Below, one piece after another: positions 260 to 42,233 of a stretch of DNA of 64,000 nt (its first letter is position 1; the number at the start of each line of letters is the position of its first letter). Below the pieces are notes generated by a model. The model did not search any database, had not been told where the DNA came from, and saw nothing but the letters and a program-made list of their open reading frames with translations. Made by a program: the position numbers and the translations under genes. Source of the DNA: a virus (taxonomy: Duplodnaviria; Caudoviricetes); IMG/VR virus record IMGVR_UViG_3300031555_003117, positions 1 to 64,000 of that record; one strand, 5' to 3'.

Positions 260-1180
260 TTAATCCAACACAGATCGCATCTCTTCCAGACCATCACCAT
301 ATAGATTTATATATGTGTTGTAGGTTATAGTCGTTGAACTATGTCCAAGTAGTTTAGAGAGTATTTTTATATTGCAACCTTTATAATAACAATTTGTTGC
401 AAAGGTGTGACGAAGAGAATGGACGCCACAATAGGTAATACCATGCCTTTCGCAGACGGTTTTGTAGTGTTTTGAAATTCTTCCGTAGTTTATAAGCTCT
501 CCTTTATCTGTAAAAACAAACTCGTTATACTTTTGCTTGCTCATAACATCAAGAATTTCAACTGCACGCTTGCTCAACGGTATTGTTCTTTCAGAACTTT
601 TTGTTTTAGGACTTGCTTGAATTTTAACAATGCATTGTTTGGAATTCAAAGCAGTTGCCCTGATCGTAATGCACTTTCGACGAAAGTCAACGCATTTCCA
701 AGTTAAAGCCTGCGCTTCTCCAACTCTTAAACCCGTCTCTAAGACGAATTCGATTATATATGAAGAAGTTCTAGGATCTTTGTGTAAAGCCGCTCTCAGC
801 GCCTCCTGCTCACTCTCAGACAATGCTACAACCTCTTTGCTCTGTTTTACTACAGATTCTCGCTTTGGCATCTTCACGCCTACTGTGTAATCCCGGTCAA
901 TCAGGTTGGCAGTAAAGGCATATCTAAGAGGCGCGGTGACAATAAGACGCTGTTTTGCAATTGTGGTATATGAATATCCGCTTTTTGTAAGTTCGTTCAC
1001 ATAATCTTGAATATGGTGCAGCCGGATATCCCGAATTTTCATCGAAGAAATATTATACCCACATAGAGCTTTTGCTTCGCCTTTGAGACGATTCAAAGTT
1101 CCCTCTTTAACAGAAAGGTGCTTTACGTTGTCAAGCCAATACGTAATGAAGTTCTCTAGCGTACTATTCCTCAATTCCAT
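260..1180 (-). CDS. int: Tyrosine recombinase (prophage integrase), 306 aa
   Basis: ETGLRVGE and HSLRHTFAT...LGH...Y motifs; start moved to ATG 1180 behind GGAGG RBS. Confidence 0.92.
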   Translation of the reverse strand: MELRNSTLENFITYWLDNVKHLSVKEGTLNRLKGEAKALCGYNISSMKIRDIRLHHIQDYVNELTKSGYSYTTIAKQRLIVTAPLRYAFTANLIDRDYTVGVKMPKRESVVKQSKEVVALSESEQEALRAALHKDPRTSSYIIEFVLETGLRVGEAQALTWKCVDFRRKCITIRATALNSKQCIVKIQASPKTKSSERTIPLSKRAVEILDVMSKQKYNEFVFTDKGELINYGRISKHYKTVCERHGITYCGVHSLRHTFATNCYYKGCNIKILSKLLGHSSTTITYNTYINLYGDGLEEMRSVLD

Positions 1181-4933: not shown

Positions 4934-6898
4934 TTAAACAGCGGATGTACCACCATTTAGGATAAATGCTTCGCCTTCGGTCTGAACAAGTTTATTTACG
5001 TTCACCTTGCCAACACCAAGAGAGCCATCACTGGAAATGGTTACTTCGTCGGTTGCTTTAAGACCAGCACCAATCGGGATTGTCACACATTTCTCAGCAA
5101 TCTCTAGGAGACTATCGCCGAGTTTTACAGATTCAATCTTGTTAACCTGCGCTGACTCTTCTATGCCCTCTAATTTACTGATAAGGGTGTCACTTACCAG
5201 AGATTTGCCTTCTTCAGCAGTAACTTTCTCGGCAACTTCTGTTTCGATATCTGCAACACGCTGGTCATTGGAAGTTTTGTATGTTTCCAAAGCCTGCGCT
5301 ACGGAAGCAGCCGTCTCGGAAGTGTCGCTCAAGCCGTCAAGAACTTCCTGAATCCTGCTTTCTGTCTCAGTCTTTGTATAAGCATCTGTAATTCCGTAGT
5401 CTGCCAAAGTTGATCCACGGTTTGCCTTGCCATCAAGAGCATCAGCCAAACCGCTCACTTTGCCCATTGCAACTTCGATCAGGGTAAGCTTCTTGCTTTC
5501 GTCAATTGCAAACTGAGTTTCGTCAACGCTATCAATCTTATTAACCTGAGCACCAGCTTCAATGCCTTCTAGTTTTGTACCCTCAGCATCAGTCATAAGA
5601 CGCTTGCCATCTTCAACATTTACCTTACCAGCAAGTGCGTCAGAAAGCCCATCGACCTTCTCCATGGGAACGTCAAGTAGGGAAAGTTTGCGATCAGAAT
5701 CAATATTGAACTGGGTTTCATCCACAGTTTCAATCTTGTTTGCCTGAGCGCCATCTTCAATGCCAGACAGCTTGTTTTCGATTGTAGTAACGCGGCCAGC
5801 AAGCTCTGTCAGGTCAGATGCCTTGGCATAGTCGCCTATCTTGAGGGCATCTACAACCTCTTGAATGTATGCAACGACAGTAGTTGAAGCTGCACCTTCC
5901 GGCAGAGCGCCTACGAATTCTTCAAGCGCATCGATTTCATTCTGTAGTTCAGTTTTGTCAGCGCCCTTCAGATAATCCTTTTCGATATTATCTACACGGG
6001 TGATGAGCTGTGCGCTACTGGTGGTATCAGCCAGAATCCAGTCAGCTACTTCGCGCAAGGTGTCGTACTTTTCGTCAATGCCAGCTTCACCAATGATAGC
6101 GTCAATAGCCTCTTGCTTGGCGGTTGCAATTGCAGTGTCGGCCTCAGTCTTGGTGTAAACATCGGTCTTTGTGTATACGTTCGCAATCTGCTCCTGGAGA
6201 GTGTCAATCTCGCCTTCGGCAGTTGTTACACGGCCAGCAAGTGCAGTATCATCGTAAGTGGCAGCTTCCTGCGCATCTTCGATCATTTCAACTACAGTCT
6301 TGCCTTCTGCAACAGTGCCGATCTTTTCATTGATGGCAGCAACGTTGGCAGTATTGTCGGCAACGCCTTTTACAAGGCCACTCTCTGCATTACCCACTGT
6401 GCTTTCCAGTGCAGCAATGTCAACTTTTAGTGCTTCAATTTCAGCAGCTAGTCCTTCAACAGTCGTAGCAGACGGACGAACCCAGGTTAAACCTGCGCTT
6501 GTCATTAAGGGCTGATATTTTATTTGAACCTCTTCGCCTTCGTCGTTCTCTTCTGTAAATGTCAGACCAGAAATTCCAGCCAGCGATACAGTGCCATCTT
6601 CTGCAACTACAATGCTCTTTTCGTCACCGATGGGGGAGATGCCGATTTCACTTAGAGATCCATCTACCTGAATGCAGAAGTTGGTTACAGTATTAGCGGT
6701 AGTATCAATATATACAACACGCTGACCTACGAAAGCTGCATCAGTAAGAGCATAATCCTTTAGAGCCTGAAGATCATTATACCAAACCTCAGATTTATCC
6801 AACGGCTGGCCGTTGAGTCGGCTGAAGCTCTTACCGAAAGACATTAGATTATCAGCATGAAAATCAACGCTTGCATTCTGTCCATAAAGTTTTGCCAT
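4934..6898 (-). CDS. Coiled-coil fibre-like protein with internal repeats
   Basis: 654 aa; LxGIExxAQxNKI motif three times; helical acidic composition. Confidence 0.7.
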   Translation of the reverse strand: MAKLYGQNASVDFHADNLMSFGKSFSRLNGQPLDKSEVWYNDLQALKDYALTDAAFVGQRVVYIDTTANTVTNFCIQVDGSLSEIGISPIGDEKSIVVAEDGTVSLAGISGLTFTEENDEGEEVQIKYQPLMTSAGLTWVRPSATTVEGLAAEIEALKVDIAALESTVGNAESGLVKGVADNTANVAAINEKIGTVAEGKTVVEMIEDAQEAATYDDTALAGRVTTAEGEIDTLQEQIANVYTKTDVYTKTEADTAIATAKQEAIDAIIGEAGIDEKYDTLREVADWILADTTSSAQLITRVDNIEKDYLKGADKTELQNEIDALEEFVGALPEGAASTTVVAYIQEVVDALKIGDYAKASDLTELAGRVTTIENKLSGIEDGAQANKIETVDETQFNIDSDRKLSLLDVPMEKVDGLSDALAGKVNVEDGKRLMTDAEGTKLEGIEAGAQVNKIDSVDETQFAIDESKKLTLIEVAMGKVSGLADALDGKANRGSTLADYGITDAYTKTETESRIQEVLDGLSDTSETAASVAQALETYKTSNDQRVADIETEVAEKVTAEEGKSLVSDTLISKLEGIEESAQVNKIESVKLGDSLLEIAEKCVTIPIGAGLKATDEVTISSDGSLGVGKVNVNKLVQTEGEAFILNGGTSAV

Positions 6899-6920: not shown

Positions 6921-8294
6921 TTACTGTAGAGTTACACGATACTGCGTCGCAGCTTCAAAGCCAGCAGGGTTTGCATGTGTAAAGGTGTACACAGTGTATG
7001 CAACCTTACCATTGTCGCCACCACGATAATCTGCTACTTCTACATCTGTTGTCTGCACAAATCCACTGAAGTTCTCCCAGCTCATGGTGAAGTATTCAAA
7101 CTTCGGAGCTTTGGAAGTATAAATCTTGGGATAGGCAACAACGATTTTCTGTGCGCCAACAGGTACAGTAAAGGTTTGTGCAGTTTTGCTTGTCTGCTTA
7201 TTAACCAAGCTTAATGCACGAATATTGGCAGAATTTAGTTCGTCTTCGGCGTTCATTGTACCCATGAACATCTTGCGCCAACCTGATACGGTAGCAGATG
7301 CAGTCTTTTTGGTGCCAGCATCAATAGTCCAGGAGCCGCCAGCCTGTGGCGTGTATTCAACGCCGGTTTCGCTGTTGCTTGTTTCGCCCACGTTGTTAGT
7401 AGGGGTGCGAGTAGATGCGGGATAAGTGCATTCTGCTGTGAAGTTATAAGTGATAGAAGTATCGTCAACAATCAGATCCTGCAACTCGGTATCCTTCAGG
7501 TTAGCAGAAGTCATGGTAAGCTTTGCAGAATTGGCATTAGTAACGGTCTTAACGTCAGTGCTCTGATCGCAAGTCACTTCAATTTCAGATGCAGTAATAC
7601 CTGCGGCAGTATCAGTACCAGACACCTTATTGCCTTCCGCATCTACATAGCCGTAAGTGTACTTACCGTCGTTAAAAGTAGCAGTAGCAGTAGGCAGGGT
7701 ATAAGTAGTACCAACTTCTTGAGAAATATTGCCAGAAGTAATCAGGCTAAAACCGGGCGCAGTCTTAGTAGGGTTGATAATATCCACATGAGCGCCCATC
7801 AGCAGTTCTTTTAGGTTTTTTCCAGCAGAGGGAATAGTAACATTGCCGTTCGTAAGCTTGTATTTACCGAATGCGTAAGTAAAAAGCATATCTTCGCTAA
7901 AATAAACGTTTTCGGCATTGTAGTTGCCATCCATCGCCGCCCAAGCAGTTCCGTTATATACATAAGCGGTATATGAATAATGCCCAGTGGAGATCGGTTC
8001 TTTTACAATAGCGGAGTCGCCTTTGACCGGCTCAGTTGCACCAACCACTCGTGCAATTGCATCAGGGTGACTTTCGCCTTCTTCAAGCGTAGCTTCGAAG
8101 GTATGACCCTCTTCGCCGCCCCAATAGGGAAGTTCTTTCCAGCTTTTAACGCCGTCGCCGATTTTCATTTTTACTTTGCCGTCAGCAGTGAATTCCACGC
8201 CAACTTCGCTTTTAAGCAAAACAACATCTTCGTTAGTCAGCCAGTTTGCGCTAGTATCGTTACGCAGTACAATTCTGGTATTCAGTTCAGCCAT
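6921..8294 (-). CDS. Mtd_N-like domain protein with Thr-rich beta-sandwich C-terminus
   Basis: RIVLRNDTSANW...KIGDGVKSWKELPY; Thr-rich Ig-like remainder. Confidence 0.7.
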   Translation of the reverse strand: MAELNTRIVLRNDTSANWLTNEDVVLLKSEVGVEFTADGKVKMKIGDGVKSWKELPYWGGEEGHTFEATLEEGESHPDAIARVVGATEPVKGDSAIVKEPISTGHYSYTAYVYNGTAWAAMDGNYNAENVYFSEDMLFTYAFGKYKLTNGNVTIPSAGKNLKELLMGAHVDIINPTKTAPGFSLITSGNISQEVGTTYTLPTATATFNDGKYTYGYVDAEGNKVSGTDTAAGITASEIEVTCDQSTDVKTVTNANSAKLTMTSANLKDTELQDLIVDDTSITYNFTAECTYPASTRTPTNNVGETSNSETGVEYTPQAGGSWTIDAGTKKTASATVSGWRKMFMGTMNAEDELNSANIRALSLVNKQTSKTAQTFTVPVGAQKIVVAYPKIYTSKAPKFEYFTMSWENFSGFVQTTDVEVADYRGGDNGKVAYTVYTFTHANPAGFEAATQYRVTLQ

Positions 8295-11322: not shown

Positions 11323-11634
11323 AATCGCAAATTGGATGCTTGTTATATGTACAACGAACAGAACAGATGAAGTATGCAGGCCGCATCAATTCCTGCGCCT
11401 TTTTATCCACTCTGTAATGGTTTTACCTAGCTGCGTGATGATCTACCCATGAAATCGCGATAACTCCATTAAACCTCGCAACCATGCAAAAAGCGTCCGG
11501 GCATTCATATCATATAACGACTTTAGGAATGAAATCCTTTACAGGATCAGGCTCCAAGGAACGAAATCTCCTTTAAGGGTGGGATAATGCTTCGCATAAT
11601 ATTATGCTACTTGTTCGTATCCCCGAATCTCAGT

Positions 11635-26313: not shown

Positions 26314-28391
26314 TCAAGTCCAATGGTATTTATATTTTTCCAGTTTACTCTTTCCCATCATACGGTCAGTTGTCATGGACTGAATAAACTTTTCAAACTT
26401 GCCGTCATGCTGCATCTTATACATCAGATCATTATAATCATCAACATGGTCAATCGGCATATTGAATTCAAAGTGATTCGTCACGCTACCGATGCTCTCA
26501 CCGCCAGCCGGTTCGCCCATCCTTGAATACAATTTTTCCAGAGCAACCGTAGTATCCATTGCCCTGCTCATCACGTGCAGGTTATTCGCCAGCTTAGAGA
26601 AATTCGTAGCCTGATCCGGCGTCAGAACTGCTTCACCACGTTTCAGCGTGTTCACAGTAATTACGTCATCGCCCTGCATCTGAGCAATTCTTTTCAGTTC
26701 GCCTACATAGCCGCCTTCGCTAAAGCCCTGAATCAGCTTGGAACCATTCTTTGAAACCCAAGCCTTTTCGCCCTTGTAGATAATGGAATGCCAGTTGCCT
26801 ACGGTTTCTCCGCCGTATTCAAATGTCTGGCCTTCCTTTACCGTACCGATGTCCTTGTAGCTCTTGCCTGCACCTGTTCTTACATTCCATCTGCCGTCCA
26901 GAATTTCAACCTTCATCGGCTGAGTTTCGGGTTCGTCCGGTTCTTCCGGAGTAGTCGGAATTGAAGGAGGTGTTATCGGCTCCGTGCTTTCAGGCTCGGT
27001 TGGAATGGTAGGCGTTGTGGTGGTCGTATTCGTAATTGTTTCGCCAGCAGTTGTATTGCTGCGCAGAACCATAGAAGAAACGTTGGCGGAAATACCGTTC
27101 AGCACAGCATTCAAGCTCGTAAGCTGAGTAGTGAAATCCGTGCCATACTTGGTAATAACGCCGCTGATACCACCATCGCCAGACCAGATAGCGGTCATGG
27201 TGTTTGAAAGCTTCAAGCCCAGCTTGTCGCTGACCGTTGTGATCGTATCCTCAATCGTCTTTGAATCGGCGTTGATTGCGTCGATCATGTCAGAAATCAA
27301 GGCGTCTGTATCATCAAGACGTTGATTCAGAACGGCTTCGTAATCTGAGTAGAGGTCGTCAAGAAGCTTTTTCTGGTCTTTGATGTACTGGTCATACTGA
27401 CTTTCTGCCAGTTCATCTTCGGCTTCTGCAAGCTCAACCTGCAGTTTTTGAATTCTGGCCTTGTTTTCCTCAGAAGTATCATTGGCGTATGCACTCAATT
27501 GCTTCTGAAGCTTCTGTACTTCCGAGGATTGCTTCTTGATCTTTTTCTGATAATCATATAGGTCTTTGGCGCTGTCAAGAGATTCTTCATAGGCGTCAAT
27601 CAGTTCCCGCAGTGAATCCAGTTCCAGATTGATACCTTCCTCTACCATGTCGATGATCGCTTGCTTTTCTTCCTCTGCCGCAGAAACAGATTCATGCTGC
27701 AAACTCAGCAGTTCTTCCCTGCGCTCAATCAGGTCAGTATTGTAAGGATCATTGGCAATCTGCTTGTCGATCTTTTCTATCTCATCGGCATACTTTTCTG
27801 CCTGTGCAAGATAAGTATTATAATTCTGACCATGCAAGCCCATTGCAGCCATACCTTCATCAGTTAGCTGTCCGCGCTCAGTGTAGAGGTCTGAGTTTTC
27901 CAACAGAGAAATCAGCGTGTTCGCTTCATCTGTAATCTTGGAAATGCGGTCTTGCACATAGTCGAAGTAAGACCATTCAAGGTTTTGTATCTCTGCGCCA
28001 TATTCGGCAACGGCAACCTGGCTTTCCTGAATTGCTTCCTTGGTATCATTGATCTGAATCTGCATTGAATACCAGGCTTCGCTGCCTTCTTCAATTTCAC
28101 CAGAATTGATACCTTGGCTCATAGCCTGAATCAAATCAGCCAATCGCTTTTCAGAGATGCCTTGCTTGGATTGTTCAACTGCCTGCAGCTCCTTGTAGAA
28201 GTTAATGCTTCCGAGGTAGCCCTGTGCGTCAAGTTGAGCAATGCCGTTGTTAATGGTATTTGCCCTGTGCTCTTCAAGCGCAAGTTCGTTATCCATCTGG
28301 GTAGTGATGGTGTCGAATCGCTCCTGATAAAGAGAAGCAAGGGATTCATGCAGTTCATCAATCGCATCCTTGCAGTCAAGGGCTTTTTCAT
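26314..28391 (-). CDS. Tape measure protein exon 4 (includes C-terminal SH3b domain)
   Basis: Joins exon 3 as TGG T|AT GAA AAA (W-Y-E-K-A-L-D), in frame with ORF 26314..28296; WNVRTGAGKSY SH3b motif. Confidence 0.85.
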
Positions 28392-28493
28392 CGTTATCTT
28401 TAGTTGGTTAGCTACACCAACTGGATTGTTAATCCCACATAGTTTCCTATGTGACGAGACTATATCTTCTACACTAAAAATAACAGTATGATA

Positions 28494-28521
28494 TTGACAT
28501 AACAATAAATCTACATATAAT
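28494..28521 (+). promoter_or_regulatory. sigmaA-type promoter inside intron 3 (peptide mRNA)
   Basis: TTGACA-16 bp-TATAAT. Confidence 0.75.
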
Positions 28522-28687
28522 AAAGATGTGGAAACCACCGTCAGGTCAGGGTTCTTTTCGTATCGTTTTCTGCCTTGGCGGTTGATGGTAAAAGGGCGGT
28601 TGCCTCCTAATTCGACACTCGCGTGAGCTGAAAGGAGGTGCAATGTGCGGCTCCCGACGAGAATACTTTTTCGGAGGTGAATTGCGC

Positions 28688-28822
28688 ATGAAAGCTATTT
28701 CATTTATGGGAGACCTTTGTGGCATCTTAGGATTTATCCTAACGATTCTATTCCGTGTAATAGACTCTTTTAAATGGAAAGCGAGCCGTCTCGCTACAGA
28801 CGACTCGCTTAGGGGTATCTGA
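28688..28822 (+). CDS. Putative type I toxin, 44 aa membrane peptide MKAISFMGDLCGILGFILTILFRVIDSFKWKASRLATDDSLRGI (in-frame upstream ATG at 28643 gives 59 aa)
   Basis: RBS GGAGGTG; one hydrophobic helix then basic residues; convergent antisense promoter; below the ORF-track size cut-off. Confidence 0.65.
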   Translation: MKAISFMGDLCGILGFILTILFRVIDSFKWKASRLATDDSLRGI

Positions 28823-28885
28823 GGTCGTAAGCCTCAATGCCTTTGTATAAGCCTGTTTCTCGTGGCGACCGTCTAGGTTTCCACA
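28775..28885 (-). ncRNA. Putative antisense antitoxin RNA (about 110 nt, ends approximate)
   Basis: Minus-strand promoter at 28891-28919; terminator-like 12 bp hairpin at 28779-28810; overlaps 3' part of peptide ORF. Confidence 0.55.
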
Positions 28886-28890
28886 TCTTT

Positions 28891-28919
28891 ATTATATATA
28901 GCATTTTTTATCGTGTCAA
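28891..28919 (-). promoter_or_regulatory. sigmaA-type promoter inside intron 3 (antisense RNA)
   Basis: TTGACA-17 bp-TATAAT on minus strand. Confidence 0.75.
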
Positions 28920-29173
28920 GATACATTTTGAGTATATTTTAGGTAGTCTACCTTTTCGAATCGCCAATCGCTTGCGATCCTACTCCCTTGCGGGATAGTC
29001 GTTGAACGTTCCCCTGTTCAGGGCTTCGCTGCTGATTGCCCAATCCTTACGTTTTTCAAACCATCGCACTTCGGTTTATTTCATCCGTATGCTGTGGTTG
29101 TAAGGCTCTAAGGGGTTTCCAGCAATTAAATAGAATACCCCTATTCGTTACCGAATAGAGGGGCAATTTGTTT

Positions 29174-29775
29174 ACCATTCTGTATAAGAGTCTATAAGTT
29201 CAGCGGTTTCCTCGTCATATTCCTTGATGTCGATTGTACCGTCATGAACCTTCTTTTTCAGTTCGTCAGACAGGCCAACAGAATTTGCTTCCTGCATATA
29301 GCGCTCAAAACCAGCCTCTTGAATTGCCAATTCTTCACGCATCTTGCGCATCTGTTCTGTTGCCGCTTCAAGTCTCTTGGGAAGCGGCTTAAAAATGCTG
29401 GCAAATGCATTTGCAGCCTTTTCAACCAGACGCTGAATGCGACTGATAGCAACTTCGATCCAGTCTTTGATGGAAGGATCGGATTCTTCATCGGAAGAGC
29501 TACTGGAAGAACCTTTGTTTGAGGAACTACTACCTGATGGTTTAGTCGTTACCTGACCACCGATGATAACCGACCCATTAGCCGTGCCACCATACTCAGT
29601 ATTGGACGCAAAAGCCGTACCCTCAGCAAGTGCTTTTCCTCTCGGCGTAATGCCTGAGATTTTACCATTTTTCAGCAATTGCTCTGTCTGCTTATGGTTA
29701 AAGATTATGTCGCCCTTCTTGTATTGGAAGAATTCTGCGCCATAATCGCCGATGGTGAAGTATTTGCCGTTACGT
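29174..29775 (-). CDS. Tape measure protein exon 3
   Basis: Joins exon 2 as GTG GT|A CGT AAC GGC (V-V-R-N-G-K-Y-F), in frame with ORF 29172..29678. Confidence 0.85.
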
Positions 29776-31355
29776 CAAATATGTTTCGCTGGTTCGCTAC
29801 GCCAGCGAGGAATAAAACCTCTCATGCTTTCACATGAGTTCAGACTATATCTTTGTGTAAATGATGATTGATGATTGTTTCTATATTGTTGTATTCCCAG
29901 TATGGGAAACGAATTAATTCGATTTTGTGCTTATGACAGTAGTTTGTTTTAATTTGATCATGCGCCTGTATGTATGAGAGAGTATTACCGAATTTGCCCT
30001 TGTCCATGAAGTGTTGCTCGCCATCAAATTCAATGCACATATTCTGGCTGGGAAGATAAAAATCAAACGGAAGTGGCCTTATATCCCTACAATCCTGAAA
30101 TATCTTTTCCTGCACATAGGGTATATTCATGTTCATAAGATGATTACGTATCTTTCTTTCGCCATTACTTTCTATATGAGAACACTCAGGGCATACTTGG
30201 CCTCCATGCTGTACAAACAAAACCAGCGAGGTAATAAAAACGCCTCCGCATCTGTTACACAGAATACGAAGGTTTTTTCGATATTGATTTATATACTCAC
30301 TCTTATTAAGCAGCAACCCGCCTAACTGTGTAATTCTATTCTCCACTTCATCAATAGACAGACTGAACTGTTTTGAAGCTTTATCCTTTGCACAACCGGG
30401 ACATCCTTTTCCGATTTTGAAATTTGAAACCCTCATACGTTGTTTGCCGTGAATAGGGCATAAGTAAGTAATATAGTCAGTATTCCTTTTGATCTCTGAT
30501 AGATCACCGATAATCTCATAGCCTTTTTGATCGGCTACTGACATAATCCCATCTATATGCGCTTCTTGCCTGTCGCGTAGTGTTGAATTTGCCTTTGCAT
30601 TACCAGCCGCAGTCCGACCACACGCATAGCACGCCTTTCCTTGAAGAATATTGGTTACTTTAGTACGCTGCTTGCCATGTTTAGGACAAATATAGTATAT
30701 ATCACTTTGAACATTGGCAATATCACTTTCATTAGAAATAAGCACATACTCATTTTTGTCGCACCATTCTTGGATCTTTGAATAATGTGATAGGCGTCGG
30801 CGAAGAATAGTTGCTTCATTGATTTTTTCGCCAGAACATTTTTGACATGCTATCTTTTGCTTATTTCTTTCTACAACACGATAAGCTTGATATGGTTTGG
30901 AAAACGAAGCTCCGCAATAATCGCATATTACCTGTACATGCACATTGGACTTATCCATTAAATCTTCTGGATGAACAATAAACTTCTCTCTATACTTTGT
31001 AAATTGATAACCTTTAGATTCAAAATGATTTCTGTTCTTCGGATTCCAACTTACTTCTATTTCTTGATTTTCAACTAAAATATTGATTCACCACTTATTG
31101 AATGTATTTCAATCATTCATTTACACATCTACCTTTTCGGATCGCCTATCGCTTGCGATCCTACTCCCTTGCGGGATAGTCGTTGAACGTTCCCCTGTTC
31201 GGGGCTTCGCTGCTGATTGCCCAATCCATTCGTTTTCAAGCATTTACGTTCAGGCTTATTTCATCCTCACGCTGTAGCCGAATGGCTCTAAGGGTTTTCC
31301 AGCAATTAAATAGATTATTTGTTCTGCTTGTTGCCAAACAGTGTGGCATCGTAAT
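29776..31355 (-). ncRNA. Group I intron (TMP intron 2), 1580 nt, with homing endonuclease in P8
   Basis: Canonical core elements; P1 GUGGU/GCCAC with U-G wobble; AAGATATAGTCT; frame restored. Confidence 0.93.
29840..30958 (-). CDS. Intron-encoded homing endonuclease: Zn-ribbon repeats plus PD-(D/E)XK/Vsr-like nuclease (frame open upstream to 31081)
   Basis: CxxC/CPxHG repeats; LPFDFYLP...IEFDGEQH motif; stop codon embedded in the P7 3' strand. Confidence 0.8.
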   Translation of the reverse strand: MDKSNVHVQVICDYCGASFSKPYQAYRVVERNKQKIACQKCSGEKINEATILRRRLSHYSKIQEWCDKNEYVLISNESDIANVQSDIYYICPKHGKQRTKVTNILQGKACYACGRTAAGNAKANSTLRDRQEAHIDGIMSVADQKGYEIIGDLSEIKRNTDYITYLCPIHGKQRMRVSNFKIGKGCPGCAKDKASKQFSLSIDEVENRITQLGGLLLNKSEYINQYRKNLRILCNRCGGVFITSLVLFVQHGGQVCPECSHIESNGERKIRNHLMNMNIPYVQEKIFQDCRDIRPLPFDFYLPSQNMCIEFDGEQHFMDKGKFGNTLSYIQAHDQIKTNYCHKHKIELIRFPYWEYNNIETIINHHLHKDIV

Positions 31356-34300
31356 ACCACGATTTCGCGCCCCAACTCACCACCGAGAGCAGTTCCAGAA
31401 CGCTTAGTACTCCAATCGCCTTGTGCATATGCAGTGCCACTTGCATACGGGCCGACACCGGGAGTGGGACTGCCAGAAGTATTGGTACTTGTAGTGGTCT
31501 TATTAACGGTTTTATATACGTTTGTCCAAGTAACAGTACCACTTGCTTTAAACTCCGTCTTGACCTGGGTTTCATCGTTTTTATTCCAGAATACTGTGCC
31601 AAATGCACGCTTGCGTATTCCTTCATATCTGACGATTGCTTTGGCGTCGTTGCTCCATTTTACAATGCCAGTAGCGGTATGATCTGCATTCAGGTATTCA
31701 TCAACCAACGTAGAATCAACGCCAGCTTGAATGAGCATTTCAGGAGTGACTTCTTTAAGCTGTGCATTTAATTCTTCTGTAGATGCCGTTGGATCAATAC
31801 CAAGTTTTGCAGCAATTGCCCGTTCCTCACTGCTGAAAGAAGCAATAATTGTATTGATTTCAGTTTCAAGCTGTTTTGTATCTGCTCCAAGGGAAGCCTT
31901 GAGCTGCATGTCGTTATGGCTATTTCTCAGGCGTTCAAGCTTGCGCAGTGTTTCACCAACCGTTCCGTCAATATCGCCCAAATCAATATTGAAAATGGTT
32001 GGGGTTTCCAGCGCTTGCTTTTGCAGTATCAACGCAGAGAGGACATATTGCGCTTCTTTTGCACCTTCAGCCTCGATGTCAATATTTCCGTCTTCATCTC
32101 TGAATTCATCAAGCGCCTTTTCAGCTTCTTTGATCTGTTCTTCAACACGCGCTACATTGGTAGTATCAAAATTGAATTGATAATCTGTTGCGCCCATAGA
32201 GTTCAGTGCTTTTGCTGCTTTATCGGCCTTTGTGGTGATTGTGTCGAGATCACCATACTTCATATCAAGCTCTACATCGAAACCATAGTCCGAGAGCTTG
32301 CGCATGATGATTTCAACGGCTTCCGCGCTGATTCCAAGTTCTTTGGCTACTTCTGAGAAATCATCAATATTGATGTCCCAAGAATTGTCTTCATTTAGCG
32401 TCGCCCAACCCTTTCCAAGTTTCTCAACATCGTTAAGGAAGTGCAATACGCCGTCTGAGCTATCTTTGAAGTACCGCTGCATCTTGGGGTAGGATTCCTC
32501 GTATATGGATACAAGGTCAGCGGATGAAGCACCACTCAGGTCTTCATCGGTCATGAGTTGAACAGCGGATCTGAACTTATTGGTTCCGATCAAACCATCT
32601 TCATATAAACCCTTTATGTCTTCAAGGCCACCCGTGATGCCATCATACATGTCGCCTTCTTCGCCCATACTCTGTGCCTGTTCCCATTTACGGTAAGCGG
32701 AAGTCAGGCCGTCGTACTGTGAAATCAGGTCGGCTGTATCGTTAATCTGTGCAGCAATTTTGTCGCGCTGTGCATATAGATCAACCGTGCTTGCAGTATT
32801 ACCGGCAGCATTAATCTGTTTTGTAAGGTCTTCATACTGCGCAATCAGTTCATCCATCTTATCGGATGTTTTCTGCTTTGTGAATTTCTCGTACTCACTT
32901 TCCAGTTCGCGCAGTGCCTTGGTATTCAGATGAATGCCGTGCTGGGTGCGTTCAAACAGGTTTGTAGTATCAACACCCGATAGGGAAGCATACCGCTTTT
33001 TCAGGTTTTCTATGGATTCAGCAGCCAAGCCCGTTGAAGAAACGGATTCCTTGATTGCAGTGAACAGGTTGTCCATACCTTCTGCCTCGGCATTGATGTC
33101 AATGGCAAACTGAGTTTCACCAACGACTTTGCCAACAGCAAGAACAACTTCCATGAAGTCTTCAAGCTCTTTGCGGTCTTCTTCGGAATCGCATTTACCG
33201 AATTGCTCATTGAAGGCTGCAATTACATCTGCGTCCATGGAGCCTAGAAGATCAATAATTGCACCTTCTAAATCCTCGCTCTTGCCTTTGAGTTCGGGGA
33301 ATTCGTCCATGAGCTTGTACATGTCGATGGGTTCAAGGCCATCTTCCTGTACCTTTTTGAGCGCGTCTTGCAGGGTTTGTGCGTCTGCGATGTAATTGTC
33401 AATAGCTGTGTCAAAAGTATTTTCCTCAACTTCAATCGCAAACGACTCTTTTATACTGTCTGCGTATTCCTGAGTAATAGTTTTTGCCTCTGCCAGCTTA
33501 TCAATATAGGAGTTTACCCAAGTTGTTAGGAAATCAGATTCGTAAGTAATGGAGCCATCATCGCCAAAGGTGAAGAAATCCTCCAGCGAATAACCTTCGC
33601 CTAGTACATCTAAAAGACTAATCGCCTTTTCCAGAGCTTCATTAAATGTGAAGTTACCGCTATTTAGGAAATCTAAGTAGTTGGACACATTGGACACTCG
33701 ATCAAGCGCATTAGACATCGCATCTAGTTCATCTACGGTGTCACTGAAACCCATATTCAACGCCGCGTCAAGTGTAATCGCCTGTTCAACGGTAAGGTCG
33801 CCGGCTCCATCTTTGAACTCGTTCAAAGCATTTACGTATGCTGTTTTTACGGCATCTGTATCAATGATAATCTTGCCATCAATTACTTTGTACATACCCT
33901 TGACAGTCTCTTCGTCAAAGGTATTCATCAATTCCAGAAGAGTTTCAACGGAATTGCTTCCGTTCTCAACAAGTTCTTCCTGAACCTTGCTTACAAAATC
34001 AGAAGCGTCGCCTATTCCTTCCATGGCTTCGGCAAAACTGTGGAATGTCAGAGGGGCTTCTTCGGAAAATCCAACTATGCTGCGAAGCGTTTCCAAATAT
34101 GTTTCTAGTGCAGCAATGTTTTCTTCGGTGAGCTCCATGTCCTCTGCCATTTTGCCCACATATCCGAAAAGATTATCATAACTTGATTCGGAATACCAAC
34201 CTTCAAGGCCAACAATTTCCCGTCGTGCCCGTTCAATTGCCTTCTCATAACTGCCAGTTTCAGCAAGCAATTGATTTAGATCTGCTTCTAGCAACCTGTC

Positions 34301-41183: not shown

Positions 41184-42233
41184 TTACAATTCTTCTAGTG
41201 AAGTTTGTTTAGTTTTCTTGATGCCTTCTGCACCAAAATATTTTTCAAACTGCTTATCCGCCTCTGTATCAATATATACTTTCAGCATATCCGCAGACTC
41301 CCATCCGATCATTTCCTGAATTATATTATCAGGAATGCCGTATTCATGTAATTTGGTAGTTAGATGATGTCTCATACTGTGCCAGTAGAATGGTCTTCCG
41401 AGGATCTGCCCGAAACTTCTTGCCCATGAATCCAACGTTGTAGTTGGGATTGGTTCATCAAGCCATTGTCCAGCATAGTATTTAGGAAATAACCAATCGG
41501 TGTTGATTTTTAGTTCTTTCCTCTGTGCCATCCAGAGATCAAGGTAGGGCTTAAATGGTTTGGCAAGTGTATAGATATCTAATAGCTTGCCTCGCGATCC
41601 ACGCCCTTTAGTTGTTACCTTTTCGGGTGTCTTATATAAGGCACCCTCACAAATTAGATTATCCTTATCAAAATAACTAACCTTAAATCTGGGAAGTTCC
41701 GCCTTGCGCCTTCCATTATTAATTGCAAGTGCAAGCATGCAAGCTTTCATATATTCCTTGTTTTCAACCAAGATATCCAGCAGTTTTTGCAAATCATCTT
41801 CAGTAAACACACTTTTTTCTCGCACTGCAATATCTGCTGGAGACTCAATTTTACGCACAATTGGTTTATAATCCTCAAATTCATCGTCGAGTATATTTTC
41901 TACGTAGTTGCTCAACGATGAAATGGTGGCCTTTACTGTACGAATACGCTTAGGAGACCATTTCCATACGTTGATAGCATGACTCTGAAACTTAGCGATC
42001 TCGCGTTTAGTTAAGTCTACAAAATGTTTATTCTTATTGAATTCTAAGTTCCAACACCAAAAAATATGCAAATTAGCCTTATATTGAAATATCGTCCCCT
42101 TTGAACGATCAATCGATGAAAGATAGTCAAGGAAGCCTTCTTCTAAGTCAATGTTATCGGGGTTTACTTGAGCCATCTTTTCATCGGAAGTAATAGTGTT
42201 ATAAACAGTTTTTCGTCCATCATTTTTACTCAT
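41184..42233 (-). CDS. Second tyrosine recombinase embedded in tail operon (SPbeta YomM-like position)
   Basis: NGRRKAE and WHSMRH...IGW....Y motifs. Confidence 0.85.
   Translation of the reverse strand: MSKNDGRKTVYNTITSDEKMAQVNPDNIDLEEGFLDYLSSIDRSKGTIFQYKANLHIFWCWNLEFNKNKHFVDLTKREIAKFQSHAINVWKWSPKRIRTVKATISSLSNYVENILDDEFEDYKPIVRKIESPADIAVREKSVFTEDDLQKLLDILVENKEYMKACMLALAINNGRRKAELPRFKVSYFDKDNLICEGALYKTPEKVTTKGRGSRGKLLDIYTLAKPFKPYLDLWMAQRKELKINTDWLFPKYYAGQWLDEPIPTTTLDSWARSFGQILGRPFYWHSMRHHLTTKLHEYGIPDNIIQEMIGWESADMLKVYIDTEADKQFEKYFGAEGIKKTKQTSLEEL

Follow-up and report, generated by a model that had tools for sequence, protein, structure and literature searches.

The stretch of DNA analyzed here, referred to as the window, comprises positions 1 to 64,000 of a 74 kb IMG/VR virus record (IMGVR_UViG_3300031555_003117) from a gut phage of the Caudoviricetes. 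Intron 3 of the tape measure gene, a group I intron of 782 nucleotides (nt), is located at positions 28392–29173 on the minus strand. The P8 loop of this intron carries a cassette of ~390 nt that contains two convergent promoters, an open reading frame (ORF) for a peptide of 44 amino acids (aa), and an antisense RNA of ~110 nt. In silico, the cassette has two generic features of a type I toxin–antitoxin system, namely a hydrophobic peptide ORF of <60 aa with a ribosome binding site and an antisense RNA with its own promoter and terminator.

Identification of Intron 3

Intron 3 was identified using the Rfam model RF00028 and by comparison with intron-less homologues. The RF00028 match extends over positions 29183–28436 of the minus strand with a score of 80.1 bits, above the curated cut-off of 50, and includes the full model (1–253). 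The Rfam alignment places ~440 nt of additional sequence in the P8 loop, and the arms of the P8 basal stem align to the consensus structure at 28936–28945 (5′ arm, minus strand) and 28471–28481 (3′ arm, minus strand). None of the ORFs inside the intron matches an endonuclease family. An initial annotation of this locus, made from the sequence alone, had described a canonical core without an endonuclease and had assigned the insert to P8, and the results above agree with it on both points.

At the borders of intron 3, the preceding exon ends in a U, which forms a U-G pair in P1, and the intron itself ends in a G. In two related viral contigs (L211 and L212) this part of the tape measure gene is uninterrupted, and exon 2 continues through a single Tyr codon into exon 3 with no gaps. 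Since this Tyr codon is the one split by the intron, intron 3 and its borders are confirmed, and the splice sites of the initial annotation (29173 and 28392) are reproduced exactly. Removal of intron 3 restores the tape measure reading frame at the site that is uninterrupted in the two contigs. We infer from the sequence that intron 3 is splicing-competent and that splicing restores the tape measure protein.

Organization of the Cassette

The promoter of the putative toxin gene (TTGACA-16-TATAAT) is found at 28494–28521 on the plus strand, and the promoter of the antisense RNA (TTGACA-17-TATAAT), which is conserved in the family described below, at 28891–28919 on the minus strand. Both match the sigma-70 consensus hexamers at 12 of 12 positions. 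They face each other and are the only two such sites within 10 kb, where the next best match is 10 of 12. The promoters lie within an imperfect inverted repeat in which 28504–28536 pairs with 28876–28908. The –10 box of the toxin promoter ends 6 nt before the start of the conserved sequence GTGGAAACC.

The full-length toxin transcript, predicted by comparison with homologous transcripts, would extend over ~357 nt (28528–28884, plus strand) and may end in a T-rich tract just beyond. It contains, in order, the motif GGAAACC (28530–28536), an element in the 5′-untranslated region (UTR) that is predicted to pair with the transcript's 3′ terminus (28595–28604), and a Shine–Dalgarno sequence, GGAGGTG (28673–28679), located 8 nt before the ATG of the 44 aa ORF (28688–28822). 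The ORF encodes a putative membrane peptide that aligns with the peptides of the family; a longer in-frame form of 59 aa begins at 28643. The minimum free energy (MFE) structure of the toxin transcript has an energy of –122.8 kcal/mol (z = –4.2), and both Shine–Dalgarno sequences are paired within it. In the MFE fold of the window copy, the element at 28595–28604 can alternatively pair with the first of these Shine–Dalgarno sequences.

The antisense RNA, the putative antitoxin, is predicted at 28772–28884 on the minus strand and is complementary over its whole length to the 3′ third of the toxin transcript. It is predicted to fold into three hairpins with an energy of –41.1 kcal/mol (z = –4.4). 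The 5′ hairpin (28862–28884, minus strand) is the complement of the 3′ partner in the closing helix of the toxin transcript. The middle hairpin is located at 28820–28836 (minus strand), and the third, a hairpin of 13 base pairs (bp) at 28779–28810 that is common to both transcripts, forms the antisense terminator over the last codons of the ORF and corresponds to helix 3 of the family RNA model.

The initial annotation had named two convergent consensus promoters, a 44 aa ORF with a strong ribosome binding site, and an antisense unit of about 110 nt with a hairpin over the 3′ end of the ORF. All of these elements are present at the positions listed above and are not due to chance; the stem of the hairpin counts 13 bp. 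A transposon-like insertion with target duplication was also considered and was rejected, as no direct repeats flank the cassette.

A Family of Cassettes Outside of Introns

Members of the cassette family were gathered with a DNA motif taken from the 5′ end of the antisense RNA. An exact search with the antisense start identified a homologous cassette in the viral contig L005, located beside an integrase gene and not in an intron. A shorter version of the motif provided 63 viral loci, of which ~45 contain the cassette; ~17 were dropped after blastn as chance matches. A longer version provided 25 genome contigs with the cassette, the titles of which refer to Oscillospiraceae, Ruminococcaceae, Butyricicoccus, Monoglobus, Faecousia, Evtepia, and Hominicoprocola. 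Two cassette-bearing genome contigs are labeled as Prevotella metagenome-assembled genomes, and these labels are probably binning errors. When the antisense RNA model was used to search 150 sampled genomes of the order, one further carrier was obtained, and the distribution is therefore patchy. A search of the viral contigs with the 59 aa peptide found no relatives; it was the DNA motif from the antisense start that succeeded.

The homologous cassettes, with 34 distinct sequences, are 308–382 nt in length. In most members both promoters match the consensus at 10–12 of 12 positions, and the –10 box ends 6–7 nt before the conserved GTGGAAACC, which opens both the toxin and the antisense transcripts; in one subgroup the antisense promoter is found ~36 nt further upstream. 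The locations of the cassettes include the integrase flank of a prophage, the junction between an endolysin gene and a host aminoacyl-tRNA synthetase gene, and chromosomal intergenic sites adjoining the signal recognition particle RNA, tRNAs, or metabolic genes. None of the 38 family loci scanned with Rfam has a group I intron at the cassette. The cassette is therefore an autonomous module and not a structure of the intron.

In the window, the only Rfam match with E up to 1 across 28300–31500 is that to the intron, and no Rfam family is found in the cassette RNAs. At the family loci the only matches are to neighboring drum, RAGATH-31, and RT-2 RNAs. The drum RNA (RF02958, an orphan motif) is located 79–83 nt upstream of the antisense 5′ motif, on the same strand, at 13 of the 37 cassette loci scanned (L076 at 6075–6185 on the plus strand, L017, L033, L042, L050, L062, L063, L065, L067, L077, L083, L084, and L088). 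The cassettes at these loci span three toxin subfamilies, and the antisense promoter is found between the drum RNA and the antisense motif. The RAGATH-31 RNA (RF03101) appears in one subgroup on the toxin strand, ~150–200 nt beyond the antisense promoter (L040 at 105–158, L056 at 7340–7392, L061 at 368–420, and L025 at 7562–7614). RT-2 RNA (RF03077), which is associated with reverse transcriptase genes, is found in the window at 11340–11621 (minus strand) and at several cassette loci (L017, L050, L065, and L076). In one genome contig (L081), the antisense RNA is present in two tandem copies at 2346–2465 and 2522–2640 on the plus strand.

Conservation of the Antisense RNA

A covariance model (R1) was built from 32 antisense RNA sequences and was used to realign 38 members, as MAFFT had left the middle hairpin out of register. 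In this alignment, where realignment biases the counts toward the model, 92% of the cells are paired and 10 pairs exhibit double changes; none of 500 shuffles reached the observed values, and slid partners are paired in 27–46% of the cells. Compensatory changes are found at all six pairs of the middle hairpin and at four pairs of the terminator stem. The 5′ hairpin does not vary among the 38 aligned members; the selection of these members had in part been based on that motif. The window antisense RNA is recognized by R1 with a score of 67.3 bits and an E value of 3e-13, the sequence itself being part of the seed alignment. The T-rich tract after the antisense terminator is the reverse complement of the Lys codons of the toxin. 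A weakened U-tract in the window copy, which would spare transcription of the tape measure gene, was considered and is not supported; the tract has 6 T in 10 positions, inside the family range of 5–9.

Predicted Closing Structure of the Toxin Transcript

The closing structure of the toxin transcript was predicted by running RNAalifold on 22 full-length cassettes in an unfitted MAFFT alignment. The last 18 nt of the cassette provide adjoining partners for the GGAAACC start and for the UTR element ~70 nt downstream of it. The resulting closing helix has 18 pairs, and 99.2% of the cells are paired, compared with 25–52% for slid partners. For the GGAAACC portion the value is 98.7%, with a compensated adjacent pair, and for the portion formed by the UTR element (helix 2) it is 99.6%. 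Only two positions on the 3′ side had been left free by the search pattern, and at these positions matched changes are found in L072, in L075/L011, and in L084.

One-sided changes in the closing helix distinguish the two strands. All 21 of the one-sided changes that retain pairing fall on the 5′ side and replace A by G or C by U; on the toxin strand these give wobble pairs (G-U or U-G), and on the opposite strand they would give mismatches. Because the wobble changes are valid on the toxin strand only, selection acts on the toxin RNA. In copies of the L076 type, a 17 bp hairpin and a T tract follow the 3′ partner of the closing helix, and the toxin transcript therefore extends that far. The closing helix of the window copy contains one mismatch and two wobble pairs. 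The predicted structure suggests that the toxin mRNA is folded such that translation is restrained.

Properties of the Peptide

The ORFs of the family encode peptides of 27–32 aa. They are preceded at constant spacing by GGAGG(T/C)G, and their stop codons adjoin the terminator. Most of them start with AUA, AUU, or AUC, 8 nt after GGAGG(T/C)G; examples are found in L076 (6367–6450, minus strand), L019 (1917–2012, plus strand), and L085 (3112–3195, plus strand). An ATG is found at the same start codon in subfamily B, in the window copy, and in the database protein P0001. Judged by these start codons, near-cognate initiation seems to be the rule in the family. The peptides form at least three subfamilies with little common sequence, and all consist of one hydrophobic helix and a Lys-rich tail. 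In subfamily A the variability is 43% at the third codon position, 33% at the first, and 24% at the second.

In an alignment of the family peptides (A3), the helix of the window peptide is closest to that of subfamily B. The window ORF reads through the terminator and stops 14 residues later, which gives the length of 44 aa with no run of Lys. Six contigs, which come from at least four samples, have a gene call identical to the 59 aa product within an unchanged gene context; the intron and the cassette recur together on them. Database homologues of the peptide are unnamed or carry automatic labels, and a protein atlas provided no usable match for the 44 aa peptide.

Matches to characterized families were sought for 22 family peptides, and the known toxin families in Pfam and NCBIfam (Fst, TxpA/Bsr, Hok, Ldr, TisB, and Hol-Tox among them) gave none at E ≤ 0.01. 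The best match to Hol_Tox, for one member, has an E value of 0.17, and Fst_toxin is included among the Pfam families with no match to the cassette peptides. Ten of the 22 match a PHROG annotated as holin with E values from 1e-4 to 1e-3 and ~20 bits over a single helix; the window peptide does not match it. When one family peptide (L062, subfamily B) served as a tblastn query against 50,697 phage records, which we assume to include Clostridioides difficile phages, a chance match in Staphylococcus was the sole result at E up to 10.

Fit of the Cassette and the Intron

Related introns were identified by a shared core of 25 nt, and P8 could be measured in ~108 of them. In ~100 the P8 is short, with hairpins of ~15 nt, and in seven it contains inserts of 400–500 nt that encode HNH or LAGLIDADG proteins. 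Since the HNH and LAGLIDADG ORFs occupy the same site in the relatives, P8 is the customary cargo site of these introns. The cassette itself was found in no other intron among the ~108, the window intron being the sole case. A metagenome scan for the intron–cassette junction returned four matches, all due to chance and with no similarity to the window. In a related gut-phage intron (L142 and L144), a consensus TTGACA-17-TATAAT promoter is found in the P5/P6 region, ~100 nt upstream of the core motif and upstream of an intron ORF; host-type promoters inside related introns may be common.

In the predicted fold of the intron RNA, the promoter regions and the ends of the cassette form a closing stem of ~45 bp (z = –11.5). 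The promoter arms of the window copy are the most complementary among 29 distinct cassettes (–50.1 vs –44.5 to –10.6 kcal/mol), and the alignment score of the two arms is 22, compared with 8 or less in the other cassettes. The toxin-side discriminator of the window copy is identical to the antisense-side one. This likeness of the promoter arms, in a single case, fits adaptation to life within a stem.

An independent contig of 127 kb (L213) contains intron 3 with the cassette and lacks intron 2. Alignment with the window provided a tract of 1069 nt with zero differences (28204–29272) that consists of the intron and 188 and 99 nt of flanking exon. Outside of this tract, exon 3 differs at 32 of 2250 nt (1.4%) and exon 2 at many positions. 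At a divergence of 1.4%, ~15 differences are expected in 1069 nt, and none is observed. The comparison suggests that the intron and its cargo were recently transferred together by gene conversion or homing. An assembly artefact is ruled out by the occurrence of the identical tract inside the diverged contig. The initial annotation had proposed that addiction, instead of homing, maintains the intron or the prophage, and this idea is weakened by the identical tract amid a diverged exon 3.

In the same contig (L213, 3030–5180) exon 2 is fused to the upstream coding sequence with intron 2 absent, an intron presence/absence polymorphism. In the window, intron 2 is located at 29815–31365 (minus strand) and contains an ORF of 372 aa (29840–30958) with a CapR-homology domain and zinc ribbons; this ORF probably encodes the endonuclease of intron 2. 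A further contig of 1.7 kb (L214, 1–1285) has the cassette and core of intron 3 joined to the 5′ half of intron 2 and exon 1 via the shared core of ~190 nt. It is either a recombinant that lacks exon 2 or an assembly chimera formed through the shared core, and was left out of the evidence.

At the start of the window, tRNA genes (36–190) are located beside a gene for a tyrosine integrase (302–823, minus strand). The location of the integrase beside tRNAs indicates that the phage is temperate, and this end of the window is likely the end of the prophage with the attachment site. A second integrase-like gene is found in the middle of the window at 41262–41810 (minus strand).

Comparison with Known Systems

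The txpA/RatA and bsrG/SR4 pairs are type I systems of the skin and SPbeta prophages of Bacillus subtilis. The cassette resembles them in having convergent genes, an antisense RNA that overlaps the 3′ part of the toxin mRNA by ~100 nt, a small membrane peptide, a prophage location, and housekeeping-type promoters on both sides. It differs from them in sequence, with no detectable similarity, in the closing helix with its 3′ partner inside the antisense overlap, and in the use of mostly AUA, AUU, and AUC starts. The assignment of a txpA–RatA type I architecture in the initial annotation stands with respect to structure, which recurs with the same layout in a conserved family; by sequence, the cassette peptides belong to no known toxin family.

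The par system of the Enterococcus plasmid pAD1 (fst RNA I/RNA II) likewise has convergent transcripts, a bidirectional terminator, and a toxin of ~30 aa with a charged tail. In par, direct repeats provide complementarity at the 5′ ends, whereas the inverted repeat of the cassette gives both RNAs the same 5′ sequence; as noted above, the cassette peptides do not match Fst_toxin. The endonuclease-bearing group I introns of phages share the intron subfamily and the P8 cargo site with intron 3, and the cassette differs from their cargo in being a two-promoter unit for RNA and peptide that is partly transcribed against the host gene.

Stabilization of prophages by type I systems has been demonstrated in C. 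difficile for CD0977.1–RCd11 and its relatives, the toxins of which are 34–47 aa in length, with a hydrophobic N-terminal part, a Lys-rich tail, and Sigma A-type promoters on both genes; the CD0956.2 family was defined by tblastn similarity (PMC7699646). These systems share with the cassette a location in prophages of Clostridia, a hydrophobic Lys-rich toxin, and two promoters (PMC7699646). The hosts of the cassette belong to the order Oscillospirales, and none of the C. difficile systems is reported inside an intron. For aapA1 of Helicobacter pylori, pairing of the 5′ end to the 3′ end keeps the full-length toxin mRNA untranslated until it is processed, and hok is discussed likewise (PMC5416894). 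The closing of the full-length toxin mRNA by pairing of its ends is thus common to aapA1/IsoA1, hok/Sok, and, as predicted, the cassette. The antisense RNAs of aapA1/IsoA1 and hok/Sok target the 5′ region, whereas that of the cassette lies over the 3′ third, within which the 3′ partner of the closing helix is found, and there is no sequence relation. A full-text literature search returned no relevant report that links type I toxin–antitoxin systems with group I introns.

Interpretation of the Cassette

The sequence comparisons favor the reading, to which we assign a probability of roughly 60%, that the P8 loop of intron 3 carries an autonomous type I toxin–antitoxin-like cassette that belongs to a previously undescribed family of gut Oscillospirales and their prophages. 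In the proposed mechanism, the RNA polymerase of the host would make both RNAs in the lysogen. Translation of the peptide would be kept low by the closed full-length mRNA, as in hok and aapA1, and by the weak start codons and the paired Shine–Dalgarno sequences. The antisense RNA would pair with the 3′ third of the toxin transcript and trigger its decay, as in txpA/RatA and bsrG/SR4, and peptide that escaped this control would damage the membrane. On the strand of the intron, the cassette ends and the mirrored promoters would pair into a P8 extension of ~45 bp that folds the cargo away from the ribozyme core, and splicing would restore the tape measure protein. The cassette would in this way gain a mobile and harmless insertion site, and the intron and the prophage may gain a stabilizing or defensive module. 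The module may stabilize the prophage, as the C. difficile systems do, protect against other phages, or benefit only itself.

Several observations weigh against this assignment. The window ORF has neither the stop codon nor the Lys tail of the family, no match to Pfam or NCBIfam was obtained at E ≤ 0.01 among the 22 family peptides, and the peptides of subfamily A match a holin PHROG, weakly, at ~20 bits. The antisense covariation was counted on an alignment that had been fitted to the model, the invariance of the 5′ hairpin is partly due to ascertainment, and the window copy has the lowest R1 score (67 bits vs 79–116 in the family). Pairing of the antisense RNA at the 3′ end of the toxin transcript would also open the closing helix, and the direction of the effect on translation is not obvious.

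Four other explanations were weighed. The peptide and the antisense RNA could form a genuine module in which the peptide is not a toxin and functions in superinfection exclusion, in holin-like timing of lysis, or in regulation of a membrane partner, with the antisense RNA tuning its level. Such a role would be consistent with the absence of a toxin family match, with the similarity of 10 of the 22 peptides to the holin-annotated PHROG (E from 1e-4 to 1e-3), and with the frequent location of cassettes in the accessory regions of prophages, where exclusion genes also lie. That similarity is, however, limited to a single helix at ~20 bits, and the chromosomal copies are far from lysis genes; moreover, the near-cognate starts, the sequestered ribosome binding sites, and the closed mRNA are signs of very tight repression, as is usual for toxic products. 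A peptide with a function other than toxicity is thus considered unlikely. The window copy might, by contrast, be a decaying passenger that has lost its toxin function and hitch-hikes in the intron while the family is functional elsewhere. Loss of the family stop codon and Lys-rich tail with an ORF that runs through the terminator, the lowest score with the RNA model, and the mismatch and two wobble pairs in the closing helix would be explained by decay. Both promoters are nevertheless perfect, the Shine–Dalgarno sequence and ATG exceed those of most family members in strength, the hydrophobic helix, the closing helix, and the three antisense hairpins are retained, and the sequence is identical across independent samples, so that decay appears improbable.

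The two transcripts might also be structured non-coding RNAs with a short ORF that is not translated, given that the 5′ UTR, the closing helix, and the antisense RNA are conserved more strongly than the peptide and that most of the ORFs have no canonical start codon. The fixed distance of the Shine–Dalgarno sequence, the conserved length and stop position of the ORF, the retention of the hydrophobic and Lys-tail character across subfamilies of unrelated sequence, the ATG at the same codon in several members, and the highest variability at the third codon position make this a very improbable account. That the insert is a peripheral extension of P8, with promoter-like hexamers produced by chance in an AT-rich stem, was suggested by the location of both promoters within a stem-forming inverted repeat in which one mirrors the other. 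This explanation is refuted by the presence of the same cassette at ~70 loci, with no intron at the cassette in any of the 38 scanned. In addition, both hexamer pairs match at 12 of 12 positions while their spacers differ, and the P8 hairpins of related introns measure only ~15 nt.

Beyond the type I toxin–antitoxin-like reading, a tentative and rather doubtful proposal is that the intron and the cassette are co-adapted partners in all of the following respects. The closing helix of the toxin transcript and the promoter arms that have become alike would serve, on the opposite strand, as a P8 extension that insulates the ribozyme. Inside an essential late gene, the intron would offer the cassette a location that leaves no scar and remains mobile, and the cassette would give the endonuclease-less intron and the prophage a selective hold on the host. 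The lytic pre-mRNA and the excised intron, which are complementary to the whole toxin transcript, could act as a large antitoxin and thereby link release of the toxin to the state of the phage.

Significance

The persistence of group I introns in phages is attributed to homing endonucleases. A cassette with promoters, a peptide, and an antisense RNA at the usual site of the endonuclease would be a different intron cargo and a possible alternative strategy of persistence. Judged from the sequences, both the type I-like family and this form of intron cargo would be new, as variants of kinds that are already known. The intron would also provide a natural test case for the tolerance of a ribozyme to a transcriptionally active insert. 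The tight linkage to the drum RNA may hint at the function of that orphan RNA. For the Oscillospirales, which are abundant and little-studied gut bacteria, the cassette defines a candidate type I toxin–antitoxin family with two unusual features, the AUA, AUU, and AUC starts and a closing helix whose 3′ partner is the target of the antisense RNA.

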